Shown here: one piece after another, positions 4,570 to 20,152 of the stretch
How the letters are laid out: each line of letters starts with the position of its first letter
Position numbering within the stretch: position 1 is the first letter of the stretch
Assembly (NCBI GenBank): GCA_020161265.1
Contig: JAIUOC010000003.1
Location: forward strand, 299,024-363,023
Source: Chloroflexota bacterium
GTDB taxonomy: Bacteria > Chloroflexota > Chloroflexia > Chloroflexales > Herpetosiphonaceae
Direction: 5' to 3'
Length of the DNA: 64,000 bases
Program-made: the position numbers and the translations under genes
Notes under the pieces: generated by a model
What the model saw: only the letters and a program-made list of their open reading frames with translations
The model's database searches: none
Told to the model about the DNA's origin: nothing

Positions 4570-4972
4570 CAGAAACTCCTTGTGTACAGGCCATCTCGGC
4601 CAAAGCGTGAATAACGGGGCATTCACGCGGATCATCAGCGGAACGAGCGGCAAATTCATGCAAGGCTTGGCGCAAACGCTGAAACTGTTGAACCGTTTGG
4701 TCAATCTGCTGGACTTTTTGATCAACAAATTGCTGAATCAAGGCTTGCTCGGTATTTTGCGGGCTGAGTTGTAGAAACATGCCCATTTCGCGCAAGCTAA
4801 AGCCCAATGCTTGACCTTGCTTGATTGCTAAAATTCGCGCAACTACCGTGTTTGAATAATCGCGATAGCCTGATTCACGGCGTTGGGCGGTTTCGATCAA
4901 GCCCATTCGTTCATATAAGCGCACCGTTTGCACACTCACGCCACAACGGCGAGCTACTTGACCAATTTGCAT
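4562..4972 (-). CDS. MerR family transcriptional regulator
   Basis: N-terminal HTH 'MQIGQVARRCGVSVQTVRLYERMGLI' and a C-terminal Cys/His region. Confidence 0.8.
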   Translation of the reverse strand: MQIGQVARRCGVSVQTVRLYERMGLIETAQRRESGYRDYSNTVVARILAIKQGQALGFSLREMGMFLQLSPQNTEQALIQQFVDQKVQQIDQTVQQFQRLRQALHEFAARSADDPRECPVIHALAEMACTQGVSDA

Positions 4973-13638: not shown

Positions 13639-13986
13639 TGGCGATTCCTTTCTCGGTGCGTGACTCCTATGGCGTTCACGCCAAAACCGCCACTATGCAT
13701 CAAGCGGCGGTGCAATGTCATTCGAATCGGTGCCGTCGCGGGCGCGTTTATTTTATCACAATCTCTTGATAAGCCAAACAGGGGGAATAAGGATGAAGGA
13801 TGAATTATGAGGGATGAAATTAAGAACATAGAACATAGGGCGATCGGCGTTTGGCTTTGGGCGATTGGCTATCGGAACGTTGTGTGGTATGACACTCATT
13901 CGCGATAGCCAATCGCCTATAGCCTATAGCCTTTTGTCACATCTTCGTGCGCTTCGTGGATCAAAATATCCCAAATCCTCGATGTT

Positions 13987-15195
13987 CTAGGCTAGAGTTT
14001 CTTGCTCATTCCAACCAGCAAAAGGATCATCGATTTGCCAAGTTGCGGCTGGTTGTTGCCATTCGTGATCGCTGACCAAACATGCATCCAACGCTTGTTG
14101 CAACCATTGTTGATCAAAATCTTGGCCAATAAAGACTAGTTCTTGGCGACGATCACCAACTTGCTCATCCCATAGGGCTTCAATTTCGGCACGTTCCTCG
14201 GCAGTTTCGGGCCATTCGCTCTGATCGCTATCGGCCCACCACTCGCCAGCTGGCTCAACACGGCAATTTTGGCCTGCTTGCGAGAGTAATCCAGCGGTTG
14301 TGGGCTGTGAAATTACCCAAAAGAAGCCTTTGGCGCGAATCACTCCAGGCCAATCGTTATTCACAAACTCCCAAAAACGTTGAGCTGCAAATGGCCGTCG
14401 AGCACGATACACCCAACTGCGAATGCCATATTCCTCGGTTTCGGGTGTATGTTCACCACGCAATTCGGCCAGTCAGCCAGGTGCAGCGCTCGCTTGATCA
14501 AAATCAAACAAGCCAGTATTCAGAATTTCGCTGAGTGGCACTTGACCATGCTGGGCATGAATAATCTTGGCCTGCGGATTGAGTTTATTTAGCAATTCGT
14601 GTAAATGAGTTAATTGTTCAGCACTGATTAAATCAGTTTTATTAATGATCAACACATTGCAAAACTCAATCTGATCGATCAATAAATCGACCAAGGTGCG
14701 CTCATCAGCCTCGTCAATTGCCAAATCACGGTCGCGCAAATCGTGGGCAGCATTGAAATCGTGCAAGAAATTGAGGGCATCAACCACCGTCACCATCGTA
14801 TCGAGTTGAGCAATTTCGCCCAAACTGAGGCCTGATTCATCTTCGAAGGTAAAGGTTTCGGCTACGGGCAATGGCTCCGAAATGCCTGTCGATTCGATCA
14901 ACAGATAATCGAAACGGCCAGCACGAGCCAACTTACCGACCTCAAGCAGCAGATCTTCACGTAAGGTACAGCAAATACAACCATTGCTTAACTCGATCAA
15001 TTGTTCTTCGACCCGATTGAGCGCAAGCTCGCCTTGACCTACCAACCGCGCATCGATATTAACTTCGCTCATATCGTTGACGATGACGGCGACCCGCAAA
15101 CCCTCGCGATTGGCCAAAATATGATTTAATAAGGTGGTTTTCCCCGCACCGAGAAACCCAGAAAGTACAGTTACAGGCAGCGGCAACTTCGACAT
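13987..15195 (-). pseudogene. COG0523/CobW-family G3E GTPase (metallochaperone) interrupted by an in-frame TGA. The N-terminal GTPase part is 14473-15195 and the CobW_C part is 13987-14463.
   Basis: P-loop '[11 protein letters not shown]' and a 'CICCTL' metal motif are in the upstream ORF. The downstream ORF, in the same frame, carries a CobW_C-like 'EEYGIRSWVYRARRPF'. The two are separated only by TGA at 14473-14475 plus 3 sense codons. Confidence 0.55.
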
Positions 15196-15340
15196 TTGGC
15201 TTTAATCCTTATTTATTGATACCATGTATCATTATAATCGATTTTTGAATTCGTCAAGCAGCGTTTGACAAAACGACCAAAGCGGAGTATACTTCAGCAC
15301 TGTTGAACGGCAAAATCGCCCAAAACACACAACTATATAA

Positions 15341-15416
15341 TCCCTGATAGCTCAGTTGGTAGAGCAATTGACTGTTAATCAATGGGTCCTAGGTTCGAGT
15401 CCTAGTCAGGGAGCCA
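15341..15416 (+). tRNA. tRNA-Asn (anticodon GTT)
   Basis: Cloverleaf read by hand: acceptor tccctga/tcaggga, D-arm gctcagttggtagagc, anticodon loop cuGUUaa, T-arm ggttcgagtcc, encoded CCA. Confidence 0.85.
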
Positions 15417-15436
15417 CTTCTTTTTACAATTGATAA

Positions 15437-15512
15437 TCCCTGATAGCTCAGTTGGTAGAGCGGTTGACTGTTAATCAGCATGTCCTAGGTTCGAGTCCTA
15501 GTCAGGGAGCCA
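15437..15512 (+). tRNA. tRNA-Asn (anticodon GTT), second tandem copy
   Basis: Near-identical to the first copy, differing only in the anticodon stem and variable loop. Encoded CCA. Confidence 0.85.
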
Positions 15513-15560: not shown

Positions 15561-15833
15561 GACACAAAAAATAAAGCACTGCGTCAAACACAGTCGCTTG
15601 GTATCAATACATCATCAGGGATAACCACCGTATTCCTGATATGGACAACTGGCAGCGGTCACATGAATGGCTACCATTCATACAACGATCTCAGCATGCC
15701 AAGAATCTTGTCCCCTTTATCTATTCATTTGGTAAGGTGCGTTAGTTTACAGAGGATACTCCACTCGCGATATAGCTGACGGTCGCCAAACACAAAGCAT
15801 ATATCGCAATAGAACTGGCCCAACTATCAGACA

Positions 15834-16100
15834 CTAGTTAGTCTGCTGAAGTTGGGCCAGTTCTACTTTTTTAGGATAAAAAAGTCCAACGGGTTCATTA
15901 TCTGGCACTTGTACCAGTAAATCACCAGGTGAAACTTCAAGAATTGAGCAAATCTTATCTAAGATTGGCAGGTCTACGCGTGTCGTATAACCACGATACA
16001 AACCTTTTGCAGTGTTATACGAGATATCAGCTCGATCTGCCAGATCTTGAATAGATAACCCTTTTTCTTCTGCAAATCTTCCCACGTTTAATACGATCAT
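15834..16100 (-). CDS. XRE (Cro/CI-type) HTH transcriptional regulator
   Basis: 88 aa with an HTH_3-like 'LSIQDLADRADISYNTAKGLYRG'. Confidence 0.8.
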   Translation of the reverse strand: MIVLNVGRFAEEKGLSIQDLADRADISYNTAKGLYRGYTTRVDLPILDKICSILEVSPGDLLVQVPDNEPVGLFYPKKVELAQLQQTN

Positions 16101-16176
16101 AAAGACCCCCTGTAACTTGGCCGTAAGTCTATTAGATCTGTTTTATTTTATCAACTTTTATTCTTTTCGACTTGTT

Positions 16177-16250
16177 GCCATTAGGTTGCTCCATTTTATA
16201 ATTTCAACTTTTCGACTTGTTGAAATTATAAAATGGAGCAACCTAATGGC
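16177..16250. promoter_or_regulatory. Perfect 32-bp inverted repeat (arms 16177-16208 and 16219-16250, 10-nt spacer) overlapping the RBS and ATG of the downstream gene. Candidate operator.
   Basis: gccattaggttgctccattttataatttcaac is the exact reverse complement of gttgaaattataaaatggagcaacctaatggc. A direct 13-mer ttttcgacttgtt precedes each arm. Confidence 0.5.
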
Positions 16251-16743
16251 ACACACAAAAGCGGTCACCTATAACTTCAAGAATCGGGATTTCGATGCGT
16301 CCGTGAACGGCGAGTACATTGGCTCATTCCCAACCGATCTGGATGCACGAATGGCCTGCAATCGTTTAGTGTTGGAATTGATTGAGTTGGATAATCGGGC
16401 TGTTGAGGAAGCTGAAGAAGTAATGGCCATTGGCGTGGTTGAACCCGTTGCCGAAGCTAGCGCTGAGGTTGCTTTGTTTGAAGTCGTCGATCTGATTCCC
16501 ATGCCTGTGGTTACCGCCACGACCTATGCCAACACCCCTATTGATGCGCTTGCCCGCACCATGGTCATTTTGAGCCGCAACTGGCAACGGGCGATTCGCG
16601 CAGGTCGGTATACTGATGCCGAGCGGATTGAAGCTCATGAACAGGCCGTCCGCAGCCAATTCCGCTCCCTCTCCTGTCCTGCATTGCCACCCACGTCTGC
16701 TACTCAGCAGTGCCCAACGACCAGTCGCCAGATTAACTATTAA
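16246..16743 (+). CDS. Hypothetical protein (islet cargo)
   Basis: ORF with GGAG RBS 9 nt upstream of ATG 16246. No recognisable motif. Confidence 0.5.
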   Translation: MAHTKAVTYNFKNRDFDASVNGEYIGSFPTDLDARMACNRLVLELIELDNRAVEEAEEVMAIGVVEPVAEASAEVALFEVVDLIPMPVVTATTYANTPIDALARTMVILSRNWQRAIRAGRYTDAERIEAHEQAVRSQFRSLSCPALPPTSATQQCPTTSRQINY

Positions 16744-16833
16744 ACCCTTCACTGCTCTTCAAAGCAGCAAAGGGCCTCACATGACCGAGGTGCAGACTGC
16801 AACCTAGCCTCGGTCACGAAAGGATGATACCTG

Positions 16834-17151
16834 ATGTCACAGACCCATGTCAATCACGACCGCTGCCAACGCTTGGCGCGTGCCAGTGCGATTGTTCAAC
16901 TGGCTACTATTATTCAGGAAGAAGAAGGCCTCGACGACAACACCGCCTACACGCTGGCTGAACACGAACTCGATGCCATCGCTGTGACCGAAGCGGCATG
17001 GAGCGAACCGCAACCCCTCGCCATGCTTCGTATCCTGCCAACAGCGTGGGGGATCGTGCTGGTGCGCAACGGTTCGCGCGTGGTCGTACATCGTGCCGAT
17101 ATTCCGGCGGTGCTGGAATCCTTGACCCGTTGGGCTGCTGTATCCTATTAA
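16834..17151 (+). CDS. Hypothetical protein
   Basis: 105-aa ORF with no motif. Confidence 0.4.
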   Translation: MSQTHVNHDRCQRLARASAIVQLATIIQEEEGLDDNTAYTLAEHELDAIAVTEAAWSEPQPLAMLRILPTAWGIVLVRNGSRVVVHRADIPAVLESLTRWAAVSY

Positions 17152-17174: not shown

Positions 17175-17534
17175 ATGGCTGATACTGCATCACCGCTCGC
17201 AAGCATCAAAGTGGAGCACCAGATTCACTTCACCCTTGATGGCTTTCCTTGCACCACCTCGGTGGCAGGTGCGACCGCCGATCAACTCAAAGTCGTGATT
17301 GATCGCCTCAAAGCGATCGGAGCACAACCACCCACGACACACCCAGCTCAACCAACCCAACCAGTCGCCGCTGCTGCACCACCCAGTGCTCCCGCCCAAC
17401 GCCTCTGCCCAACCCATGGTTCGCCCTTGCAGTTACGCCAAGGCACGCGACGCGGTGGCAAGCCCTACAAATTTTGGAGCTGCAACCATACCGATGCGGA
17501 TGGCAACTGGTGTGATCATACCGAGAAGCCGTAG
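17175..17534 (+). CDS. Hypothetical protein with a C-terminal zinc-ribbon-like motif
   Basis: 'CPTHGSPL...FWSCNHTDADGNWC' resembles a small C4/C3H zinc ribbon. Pro/Ala-rich linker. Confidence 0.4.
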   Translation: MADTASPLASIKVEHQIHFTLDGFPCTTSVAGATADQLKVVIDRLKAIGAQPPTTHPAQPTQPVAAAAPPSAPAQRLCPTHGSPLQLRQGTRRGGKPYKFWSCNHTDADGNWCDHTEKP

Positions 17535-17696
17535 TGGAGGGTATTCATGGAATTAACCGCTGCGGCGATTCGTCGCTATGTGACCACCCGCTTGGCCACG
17601 CACATTGCTGACATACACGCGCTCCCTAGTCCACATCCTGAATGGGATGTTGGGTATCTTGATCAGTAAGTCTCTAGGAATAGCAGATGTCACTCC

Positions 17697-18002
17697 CTAA
17701 CTCTGAGCGTCATCCAGCAGTATTCTGCTCCATTCCAGAAGCTGTTGGCGACCAGATTCGCCGACCAACTTCTCGCTGATTGCTAAGCGAACAACCTGCC
17801 GCCGAACCGCTTCAAGGACAACATCATGATAGTGGTTCACGATCCATTTGTGCCAGTCCTCGGGTGTGGTCTGATTATCAGCAAGGTGGATAAGAAAGGC
17901 GGCAAATTCCTGGCGGTACGATGTGGACATAAACAGCCTCCAGGGCGGCACCGCCACCCAGTTCTGGGGATATGACACCCGCAGCGTCGGGAGGGGAGCC
18001 AT
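17697..18002 (-). CDS. Hypothetical protein
   Basis: ORF only. The start is uncertain. Confidence 0.3.
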   Translation of the reverse strand: MAPLPTLRVSYPQNWVAVPPWRLFMSTSYRQEFAAFLIHLADNQTTPEDWHKWIVNHYHDVVLEAVRRQVVRLAISEKLVGESGRQQLLEWSRILLDDAQS

Positions 18003-18725
18003 TGTTCGGTATGCTTGGACGGACCACCAACCAAGCTTTACTGCCCAAGGAGACTCCCCTCATGAACACGTTGCCAGCCTTGACCAGTCAACGTATTTTA
18101 AATGATACCATGGCCCTGCTCCAGACCTATATCCCACTTCAAGCCACAGGCTATCGCTGCCAGACAGCCTATGGGACGGCCTTGAGCGATCTGGCAGCAT
18201 AGATACGAGAGACCCTCGATGAACCCCTGCCGCCCCTCGTTGATCGCGAAGCCGATGGGCTGGCTATCGCGATTGACTGACTGATGATGGATGACCAGCC
18301 AGCAGTTCAAATCAGGCTGTTGGCGAATGTTTTTTTAGCGCGAAACGGTTATGATAATGGATATTGTCGCACATGGTCGGTATCGACCTGCTACCCCATA
18401 TGATGTTTAACGCGACACGTTCGCACCCCGTACTCAATTCCATGCCCCAGGCACCGCCGTTAAATCCACCCCAACCCCCGCACGATGGCCAGCAGAAGGA
18501 GTTTCCAGCTGTGGCCAAGCAACTGCGCGGACGATGGCACAACATCGCCAAACTGCACTAGCCATGTGACCCAAGAGTTGATTGGGTTGCAACTCCTCAG
18601 CACTGGCATACGTACACACCGCAGTGATACCAAGATTCCGTGTTGCACCAATCCAACTGGAGTGTCTGTCAGGTGAAAACGATACGTAGGCCCCAACAAA
18701 TAATCTTATTAGAGGAGAGACCCCT

Positions 18726-19676
18726 ATGCATACCAGACGGCTGGCCCTGTTAGCGAGCTTGTGTGCCGTGTTGCTTGGCTTTGCGGTGGCTAAACAACCT
18801 GAAGGAACACGCGCCAAGGCATTATTAACACCAACCCCAACGCCACTTCGCTCGGAATTAATTCTGAGCGGCCCGACCGAAGTTTACGTTGGTGAACTGT
18901 TTTTGATCATGATTCAATATGTCAATATTGGTGTGCCTTCCACCACAATCACCCTGAGTCCGAACAATCTGGCGCACTTTGATCCACCGATGATGATGCC
19001 GTGTAAGTCCAATGAACATATAACAGGGTGTCGCGCAATCACATTACGAGCAACGGCTGGGGGACTATTAAAAATTTCTGCATCGGCGACAGGCGAAGTA
19101 CCGATTGCTGGTGGTGGTTGGGCTTGGGGCAGTGCTCAGGAACGGAATCCATTGATGATCAATGTTGTTGATTCCAATGTGACGGCTACCGCAACAGCGA
19201 CTAACACGGCAACACCATGCCCAACTACCGTGGCGATGCGTGATAGCGCTTGTATCGGAACCCCAACGATCACGCCAACTAGTGGAAGTCCAACGGTCAC
19301 ACCACTGGTTAAAGAGTTGATTTTGAGTGCGCCACCGTTGGTGAATGTTGGCGATGCATTCAGTTTGACGATTCAGTATGTCAATATTGGGGTACCCTCT
19401 ACCGGAATTACCCTGAACCCAATCGGCACTGTCCAGTTTGATCCACCATTGACGATGCCCTGTACGTACAATCAACATCCAACGGGATGTCGCACGATTG
19501 GGTTGCGAGCGGTTGCCCCTGGTACGATTGAGATTGACGCTGGGGCGACTGGTGAAGTGCCAATCGCTGGTGGCGGCTGGGCTTGGGGTAGTGCCCAGGC
19601 ACGGAATTCTATTAATGTGCAAGTCCGTAGTGTTTTAGCCTATAAAACCTTCATTCCCTATGCCAAAGTTCAATAA
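18726..19676 (+). CDS. Secreted protein with two tandem ~100-aa internal repeats
   Basis: Signal peptide 'MHTRRLALLASLCAVLLGFAVA'. The block 'ELILS..IQYVNIGVPST..ITL.P......FDPP..MPC......TGCR.I.LRA.A.G...I.A.ATGEVPIAGGGWAWGSAQ.RN' occurs twice. Confidence 0.6.
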   Translation: MHTRRLALLASLCAVLLGFAVAKQPEGTRAKALLTPTPTPLRSELILSGPTEVYVGELFLIMIQYVNIGVPSTTITLSPNNLAHFDPPMMMPCKSNEHITGCRAITLRATAGGLLKISASATGEVPIAGGGWAWGSAQERNPLMINVVDSNVTATATATNTATPCPTTVAMRDSACIGTPTITPTSGSPTVTPLVKELILSAPPLVNVGDAFSLTIQYVNIGVPSTGITLNPIGTVQFDPPLTMPCTYNQHPTGCRTIGLRAVAPGTIEIDAGATGEVPIAGGGWAWGSAQARNSINVQVRSVLAYKTFIPYAKVQ

Positions 19677-20152
19677 TGGGAAGGATAGAAAGTTGGGGGA
19701 ATGAAAGACGATGACAAATGGCAACCCACGGGAGCGCCAATGAGTTGAATGATTGGGATGTCGAAGCCGAGGAGGCGCTCTACCTATTGTGTTGCCCACA
19801 ACCAGGGAGGCTACGCCGCCAGCTCCTGAGACCAGTGACCCCGACCCGTATTTCGGTATAGCCATCGACCGCAGTCGTCGTGGTCAACAGGGTGTGCATG
19901 ACGTGACTGATCGGCGGTATGATCTCCATGGATGTTCCTTGGATTCATCATGAGTGTTGCAATGTCATGATGCCATGGGGCGTCCGTTAATATTAAGCTT
20001 GCTGCGCATGGGGAATTTACTTTTAGTTCCTAAAAGCACGCAGATCTGCCTTTCCAGAAGGAATCACGATTATGCATTAAATCGTGATTCCTTCTTTATT
20101 ATGGAGTTCTTTCAGGCAATCAGGTTTGTGCTTTTTAAAGGGAGTTGTGAAT

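Follow-up and report, generated by a model that had tools for sequence, protein, structure and literature searches.

Why should the promoter of a bacterial gene be the perfect reverse complement of the ribosome-binding site (RBS) and start codon that follow it? The question is raised by a locus in a Herpetosiphon-related Chloroflexi metagenome-assembled genome, of which a 64-kb stretch of DNA (hereafter, the window) was analyzed. From left to right, the locus contains cobW, two tRNA-Asn genes, a hairpin, a small repressor gene of the XRE family, a long perfect palindrome, a gene for a 165-aa protein and two additional open reading frames (ORFs; 16834-17151 and 17175-17534). The 165-aa gene (16246-16743, plus strand) is divergent from the repressor gene and will be called the early gene. 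According to an original prediction, the palindrome covers the RBS and ATG of this early gene, and is either an ideal dimeric operator for the XRE protein or an RNA hairpin that sequesters the RBS. The location is borne out; the interpretations fare less well. On balance, and with modest confidence, we consider that the palindrome is the core of a repressor-controlled switch in a decayed element at tRNA-Asn, and that the complementarity of its arms is the outcome of templated inverted copying specific to this lineage.

The inverted repeat detected by a repeat search in the window has arms of 33 nt each (16176-16208 and 16219-16251), which are 100% complementary and flank a 10-nt spacer, TTTTCGACTT (16209-16218); its total span is 76 bp. 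Perfect arms and the spacer length had been correctly anticipated, whereas an arm length of 32 bp had been proposed. The chance expectation for perfect inverted repeats of at least 33 nt with a spacer of at most 60 nt is ~5e-14 in 64 kb, and the second longest perfect inverted repeat in the window has arms of 16 nt. No further copy of the arm sequence exists in the window, even if 3 mismatches are tolerated (0 matches expected). The direct repeat previously described as a 13-mer that precedes each arm also exists, but it is a 15-mer, CTTTTCGACTTGTTG, present on the plus strand at 16163-16177 and 16208-16222. Its second copy consists of the loop together with 1 nt of one arm and 4 nt of the other, and is therefore no separate element ahead of the right arm.

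Because arms so perfect are suspicious, and the source is a metagenome-assembled genome, one may wonder whether the palindrome arose artificially during assembly or amplification, for instance as a chimeric fold-back. We find this hardly credible. An identical palindrome sequence is present in an independently assembled metagenome contig of the Joint Genome Institute (Ga0056911_1001020), and both flanks run on into normal genes. Furthermore, a Logan contig of SRR5422910 begins at window position 16222, where the first 31-mer not wholly inside the arm is found. Logan assemblies use k=31, and if the reads contain the 33-nt arms, a graph of this k is bound to break at exactly this point.

What do the arms contain? 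The tRNA genes are preceded by TTGACA-17-TATACT (15265-15293), and the sigma-70 consensus thus appears to be in use in this genome. On the plus strand, the left arm holds the core of a predicted promoter that matches 11/12 consensus positions, with a -35 box TTGCCA (16175-16180), a 16-nt spacer and a -10 box TATAAT (16197-16202), then TTCAAC. It is the sole plus-strand promoter found upstream of the early gene, and its predicted start point is ~16209, in the loop. The right arm contains the 5' untranslated region (5'UTR), the RBS GGAG (16235-16238), the ATG (16246-16248) and codon 2 of the early gene; the presence of GGAG and ATG inside this arm had been noted before and is confirmed. Should the left arm indeed hold a promoter, the symmetry of the palindrome dictates that the right arm holds its mirror image, directed toward the XRE gene. 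The mirror promoter is GTGCCA-16-TATAAT on the minus strand (16252-16225; -35 at 16252-16247, -10 at 16230-16225), it matches 10/12 consensus positions, and transcription from it would start at ~16218 and traverse the left arm. Hence, the predicted start points of the two facing promoters lie inside the spacer, ~10 bp apart. Given the known sizes of the RNA polymerase footprint, both promoters could not be occupied together. Symmetry also provides the minus strand with a mirror image of the RBS and start of the early gene: behind the mirrored RBS of the left arm one can read a mini-ORF of seven codons, MATSRKE* (16181-16158), which is probably a by-product. A proximal XRE promoter, TTGATA-17-TAGACT (16126-16154, minus strand, 9/12 consensus positions), is predicted back-to-back with the early promoter. 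Altogether, the region is almost certainly the control region of the early gene, as had been proposed, although neither the operator nor the hairpin reading is supported in its original form.

Comparison with other loci was used to trace the history of this region. The divergent gene (15834-16100, minus strand, 88 aa) does encode an XRE-family protein, as originally predicted: it matches PF13443 (HTH_26) with E=1e-15, and PF01381 was also matched. Its relatives are few. The closest one, encoded on a Logan contig (L006), is 70% identical; identity is 59% for L010, L011, L017 and L018, 51% for L014, and 49% for L016. In all of them the XRE gene is divergent from a set of small genes without assigned function, and an integrase gene lies beyond these in L006 and L017. 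A relative found in a viral contig (37% identity) was discarded as too distant for comparison. An invariant stretch, YNTA(K/R)G, is found throughout the family and, by analogy with helix-turn-helix proteins of the Cro/CI type, is a putative DNA-recognition helix; if so, similar operator half-sites are to be expected in all these loci.

Orthologous loci do not contain the palindrome, an outcome that the original prediction had named as evidence against itself. It is absent in Herpetosiphon geysericola and H. llansteffanensis, in a paralogue from the same sample, and in the nearest relatives of the XRE switch, L006 and L010. In its place, the Herpetosiphon orthologues and the paralogue have ordinary TTGACA...TATAAT promoters within A+T-rich sequence. 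Back-to-back promoters, perfect or nearly so, are found in L006 and L010, with -35 boxes that form a TGTCAA-N4-TTGACA palindrome. Nucleotide homology between the window and the two Herpetosiphon loci begins exactly at 16245, one base before the ATG, and on the other side ends at the XRE start codon; therefore, the whole intergenic region of the window is a different module.

A three-way alignment of the intergenic regions of the window, L006 and L010, drawn with the XRE gene on the left, reveals a common order: XRE promoter, operator-like site over the early -35 box, spacer of 16-17 nt, -10 box (TATAAT/TATACT), second operator-like site, A+T-rich leader, and RBS/start. In the window, these places are occupied by TTGATA-17-TAGACT (the position of which matches that of the XRE promoters of L006 and L010), the first 15-mer, TTGCCA-16-TATAAT in the left arm, the second 15-mer, and the right arm. 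The early promoter of the left arm aligns with the -35 and -10 boxes of the early promoters of L006 and L010. The operator-like elements of L006 and L010 are sites of 14-16 bp located at the -35 box and just past the -10 box, and the second one is GTCAACAAGTCGAA in L006 and GTCAATTAGTTGAC in L010. The first 15-mer overlaps the early -35 box and aligns with the TGTCAA-N4-TTGACA sites, and can be considered a candidate XRE operator in the O2 position; the second one, at the predicted transcription start, is a candidate for the O1 position. The 15-mers are spaced by 45 bp, which is also the O1-O2 spacing of L010 (38 bp in L006). In the stretch TTCGACTTGTTGA-ATTATAA, the window and L006 are identical at 20/21 positions, while their XRE genes are just 71% identical in DNA.

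The alignment also tells which parts of the palindrome have counterparts elsewhere. The RBS/start region of the window, GGAGCAACCTAATGGCA, is homologous to GGAGGCAACCCAATGGCA in L006 and to GAGGACAACCCAATGACA in L010, and the three switches share the pattern GGAG(G)CAACC-N-AATGRCA. Likewise, TATAAT-TTCAAC of the window is matched by TATAAT-GTCAAC in L006. The RBS/start and the -10 box with its adjacent TCAAC are therefore probably ancestral. The tract of the left arm that contains the -35 box and the promoter spacer, TGCCATTAGGTTGCTCCATTT, is the reverse complement of the RBS/start region and is without homologue in the relatives. Compared with L006, the inner part of the right arm has small insertions that make it match the -10 region, and the 10-nt spacer matches that of this single outgroup at 9/10 positions as reverse complement and at 5/10 if read directly. 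Among the switches compared, only in the window are promoter core and RBS/start reverse complements of each other. Perfect complementarity of promoter and start region is probably not an ancestral design.

Perfect arms together with an inverted spacer have been described as a signature of polymerase template switching between short inverted repeats (PMC8604942, PMC7202029), and a single event of this kind has been reported to lengthen arms from 5 to 16 bp with concomitant inversion of the spacer (PMC8604942). The arms of the window are perfect, one partner is homologous to the outgroup and the other is not, and the spacer appears inverted; the arrangement therefore fits homogenization of the arms by template switching.

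On these grounds, the following model can be proposed. The left arm would be a sigma-70-type promoter of the early operon, and the right arm its 5'UTR, RBS and start codon. The divergent repressor would bind the two identical 15-mers, one at -35 and the other at +1, thereby shutting off the early operon; binding is inferred from the position and the conservation of the sites. The palindrome probably grew outward from a small palindrome, CAAC-N10-GTTG, that surrounds the operator in the O1 position, as template switching homogenized the arms of this short inverted repeat and inverted its spacer. Growth would have stopped where further extension would change the operator (the first 15-mer) on the left or codon 3 on the right. 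Ends at these two places are as expected for growth driven by mutation and bounded by selection. If the mirror promoter is active, the two promoters would exclude each other and the repressed state would be reinforced. A simpler scheme, in which a 45-bp insert made of the inverted copy and one direct repeat was added to an ancestor, was dropped: such an ancestor would be without early promoter, and the architecture shared by the relatives would be broken.

Several observations weigh against the template-switching model. The promoters are matches to a consensus, and start points, repressor binding and expression are predictions made from sequence. Both arms seem to have been partly overwritten: the right arm would have supplied the outer part of the left one, and the left arm the inner part of the right one, so that more than one event, or selection for symmetry, is required. 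That an 11/12 promoter with correct spacing should result from reverse-complementing an RBS/start region is a remarkable coincidence. Inversion of the spacer is deduced from the outgroup L006 only, and the TCGA core of the spacer makes its two orientations partly alike. A further difficulty comes from L014, a metagenome-assembled genome of Roseiflexaceae, and from L016, which have perfect palindromes of their own (L014 2905-2960; L016 1845-1905), whose arms measure 22 and 23 nt and whose spacer is 11 nt long. The palindromes carry two back-to-back TTGACT -35 boxes, and are centred between them on GTCAAC-N9-ATTGAC. The arms of L014 and L016 are 95% identical, with one G/A...C/T difference that is compensated on both arms, while identity is 75% in the loop and 64-76% in the flanks. 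Symmetry has been kept in this pair; hence, long perfect symmetry can be selected in the XRE family. More cautiously, it can be maintained either by selection or by repeated homogenization of arms on a constrained sequence. A palindrome of the L014 type was not found in the viral contig collection.

One alternative to template switching is therefore that symmetry itself has been selected. Each arm would then be a self-dual cassette, promoter when read inward and RBS/start when read outward, and the twin promoters, one for the early operon and the other a distal promoter for XRE, would be mutually exclusive, thus providing a switch of the P2/186 style in 76 bp. We regard this possibility as unlikely, even if several facts speak for it: the mirror promoter is a 10/12 match aimed at the repressor gene; -35, -10, RBS and ATG all survive on both strands; L010 also has an additional XRE-directed promoter, TTGACT-17-TATACT (475-503), that faces its early promoter; L014 and L016 have retained perfect palindromes, with a compensated change, in the same intergenic switch; and phage 186 has an established switch in which convergent promoters interfere with each other's transcription (PMC3675496). 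However, conservation of the arrangement is patchy: a convergent second promoter directed to XRE is absent in L006, L014 and L016, and the palindromes of the last two have a different geometry. The mirror promoter has GTGCCA as -35 box, with an overlap into the ATG, only an ORF of 7 codons lies behind the mirrored RBS, and selection on the switch may be relaxed now that the integrase has been lost. A more ambitious version, in which long perfect palindromes would recur under selection in the XRE switches that Chloroflexi integrative elements carry, and the mirror-image promoters of the window would share one operator at their common start region to form a minimal bistable switch, seems to us slightly less probable still.

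The operator interpretation takes as XRE target the whole palindrome, or its inner part TTTCAAC-N10-GTTGAAA, with dimers or tetramers bound symmetrically across both arms. Half-site-like TWTCRAC sequences do occur 5 times within 16149-16225, out of 45 in 64 kb, the relatives have GTCAA-N4-TTGAC palindromes in the same region, the palindromes of L014 and L016 are centred on a similar motif, and the putative recognition helix is invariant. Against this view, 76 bp is several times the size of a site for a helix-turn-helix dimer, and most of each arm is promoter spacer and -10 box or 5'UTR and RBS. Beyond the inner 7 nt, the arms are wholly different from the relatives in spite of the same putative recognition helix, and the element best conserved with L006 is the 15-mer, which also holds the operator positions of the relatives. 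An ideal dimeric operator is thus a poor description, and we consider the operator reading rather improbable. Even less probable, in our opinion, is a transcript that covers both arms and folds into a 33-bp hairpin, where RBS and ATG would be hidden, or which RNase III would cut, with translational silencing of the early gene as a consequence. The full hairpin would certainly be extremely stable (-55.1 kcal/mol, z=-14.4), and L006 offers a parallel of sorts in a perfect repeat with 17-nt arms that covers an integrase ATG and has the RBS in its loop. Nevertheless, a promoter scan found no plus-strand promoter between the hairpin that seems to terminate tRNA transcription (15810-15865, with its T-run) and the left arm, and the left-arm promoter lines up with those of the early genes in L006 and L010. 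With the predicted start in the loop, the mRNA would be without left arm, no hairpin would sequester the RBS, and the predicted messenger shows no unusual structure (z=0.48). Conservation or covariation in orthologues is also lacking, as the palindrome is absent in L001, L002, L003, L006 and L010. A search of Rfam 15 at permissive E-values yielded the two tRNAs and sub-threshold look-alikes of miRNA precursors (e.g., 42 bits for a cut-off of 180 bits), with no family at gathering score. More remote than the bistable switch mentioned above is a variant in which the hairpin would be a promoter active on single-stranded DNA, by analogy with Frpo of the F plasmid or the minus-strand origin of M13.

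Other identities were considered and rejected. An intrinsic-terminator scan did not flag the palindrome: its arms are A+T-rich and no T-run follows the stem on either strand, which dismisses a terminator. The end of a miniature inverted-repeat transposable element or of an insertion sequence was rejected on the grounds that the arm is single-copy in the window. A protelomerase or recombinase site was discarded because the spacer is asymmetric, such an enzyme is not encoded nearby and an integrase is missing in the window. The conserved motif TTCGACTTGTTGANATTATAA had 0 matches in viral and metagenome contig collections and 1 match in genome contigs, a chance one inside a Lacibacter coding sequence; the source genome is outside these collections. 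Comparison by blastn of positions 15800-16800 with phage records gave no match.

The genomic setting points to an integrated element. Two tandem tRNA-Asn genes (15341-15512, plus strand) mark its chromosomal end, and orthologous loci display the same order of cobW, tRNA, XRE, early genes and integrase. At the same chromosomal site, H. geysericola and H. llansteffanensis harbor 4-5 tandem XRE genes, a tyrosine integrase and orthologues of the early genes, with 77% and 73% identity at the protein level. The window therefore probably contains a small integrative element at tRNA-Asn. The copy in the window is decayed: its integrase is lost and a downstream ORF is disrupted. While orthologous elements carry a tyrosine integrase, none was found in the window by tblastn. 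An insertion of 503 bp (17664-18166), with an ORF on its minus strand (17697-18002), interrupts the window's homologue of a 76-aa ORF of H. geysericola. Still present, at 18169-18365, is the segment found ahead of the integrase gene in four related loci, with a conservation of 88-95%.

The tandem XRE genes of the two Herpetosiphon genomes lie between tRNA-Asn and the early genes (L001 2600-3854; L002 2269-3864), an arrangement suggesting that elements have accreted or recombined repeatedly at a single attachment site. In DNA, the XRE gene of the window is closest (75-78%) to the N-terminal half of a 142-aa two-domain XRE gene of these genomes. A perfect hairpin with arms of 16-24 nt covers the stop and last codons of XRE in every related locus (15810-15865 in the window; L001 2572-2631; L002 2241-2300; L003 1350-1409; L006 4237-4290; L010 ~820-880), and one of its arms encodes the conserved C-terminal peptide KKVELAQL. 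In the window this hairpin is followed by a T-run on the plus strand (15810-15872), and looks like a terminator for the tRNA-Asn pair; its L006 counterpart looks bidirectional.

The early gene product has 0 Pfam matches and a marginal PHROG match. An AlphaFold2 model built on a 6-sequence alignment (predicted local distance difference test score, 71) retrieved from the Protein Data Bank (PDB), using Foldseek, generic helical-hairpin matches with E>0.5, and no fold match. The first early proteins of the window (16246-16743), L014 (2292-2822) and L006 (2938-3882) share the N-terminal motif ..DF..Y(L/V)(N/D)GE.(I/V)G.., which is confidently modelled by AlphaFold as a three-stranded sheet with a long helix, with no family or PDB fold match.

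Additional repeats and ORFs were observed. In the 5' leader of the early operon, L014 (2850-2880) and L016 (~1790-1822) have a G+C-rich hairpin that is kept in both with a different stem sequence and could be an attenuator or a stabiliser. In L006, positions 4580-4665 contain the above-mentioned 17-nt perfect inverted repeat (4612-4628/4649-4665), with the RBS GGAGG in a 20-nt loop and the right arm over the ATG of a second integrase gene; just upstream lies an apparent reverse complement of the tRNA 3' end, GGTGCGGCTGGAGGGACTCGAAC, which may be the remnant of an attachment site. The cobW-like GTPase of the window (13987-15195) consists of two ORFs (240 aa, and 158 aa with a CobW_C domain), while Herpetosiphon genomes have a single gene for 398-402 aa; the split could be a frameshift or indicate a pseudogene. 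An imperfect inverted repeat with 44-nt arms (73%) lies upstream of these ORFs, at 13831-13946. Elsewhere in the window, a 316-aa ORF without family match (18726-19676) contains an internal duplication (18911-19157 and 19370-19617, 72% identical in DNA), and a perfect inverted repeat with 16-nt arms and an 8-nt loop (20056-20095) adjoins the end of a 3182-aa ORF.

If the template-switching model is correct, the locus would be a clean natural case of a whole promoter rewritten by copying, in reverse complement, an RBS and a start codon. The outcome would be a promoter that looks functional and, as a side effect, a convergent twin promoter; face-to-face switches might thus arise in one or two mutational steps. 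The locus also brings to light a small family of elements, not described before, that are integrated at tRNA genes in Herpetosiphon and Roseiflexaceae-like Chloroflexi and made of an XRE gene, 3-5 early genes without assigned function and an integrase. Its switch has a conserved layout and is compact enough to be synthesized. A word of caution is also in order: however striking, a perfect palindrome that covers an RBS is not necessarily an operator, nor an RNA structure.

How does the locus compare with known systems? Switches of the Cro/CI (XRE) type control temperate phages and integrative elements, with lambda OR and ICEBs1 ImmR/Pxis as examples. As in these switches, a small helix-turn-helix repressor gene is divergent from an early or excision operon, the promoters are back-to-back, repeated operator-like sites lie over the early -35 and +1, and the element is beside a tRNA gene. 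On such sequence features, the locus qualifies as a Cro/CI-type repressor switch of an integrative element. It departs from them in having as candidate operators two identical 15-mers in direct orientation, spaced by 45 bp, in the perfect reverse complementarity of promoter core and RBS/start, and in the loss of the integrase.

A second comparison is with phages whose promoters are face-to-face, like Pe and Pc of P2, or the pair of coliphage 186. In phage 186 the facing start points are 62 bp apart, while those predicted in the window are separated by ~10 bp. Moreover, a single palindrome contains both promoters of the window as mirror copies, the repressor, of the HTH_26 family, has no demonstrated kinship with 186 CI or P2 C, and the predicted second promoter is absent in L006. 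The likeness to P2 and 186 (pR/pL; PMC3675496) is in predicted topology only: early and repressor-directed promoters that face each other, overlapping transcripts with possible mutual interference, and a repressor gene downstream of the weaker promoter. In the literature searched, though with searches not aimed at this arrangement, we found no description of a promoter and an RBS/start that are perfect reverse complements with mirror convergent promoters. Within the family, L014 and L016 have the same kind of XRE protein and intergenic switch, with perfect arms that carry promoter elements. Their palindromes are, however, centred between two back-to-back -35 boxes rather than downstream of a -10 box, their arm sequence is unrelated except for the inner TCAAC, and, unlike the palindrome of the window, they are conserved between two lineages.

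A third comparison is with the quasi-palindromes that arise by template switching (the Ripley model; PMC8604942, PMC7202029). The window shares with them perfect arms, each having a part with homologues and a partner without, a spacer inverted with regard to the outgroup, and a short seed, CAAC...GTTG. It differs from documented products in the unusual length of its 33-nt arms, in the partial overwriting of both, and in its location in a regulatory region where every functional element has survived. Altogether, the symmetry found in the window is lineage-specific, resides in a decayed element and is probably mutational in origin.

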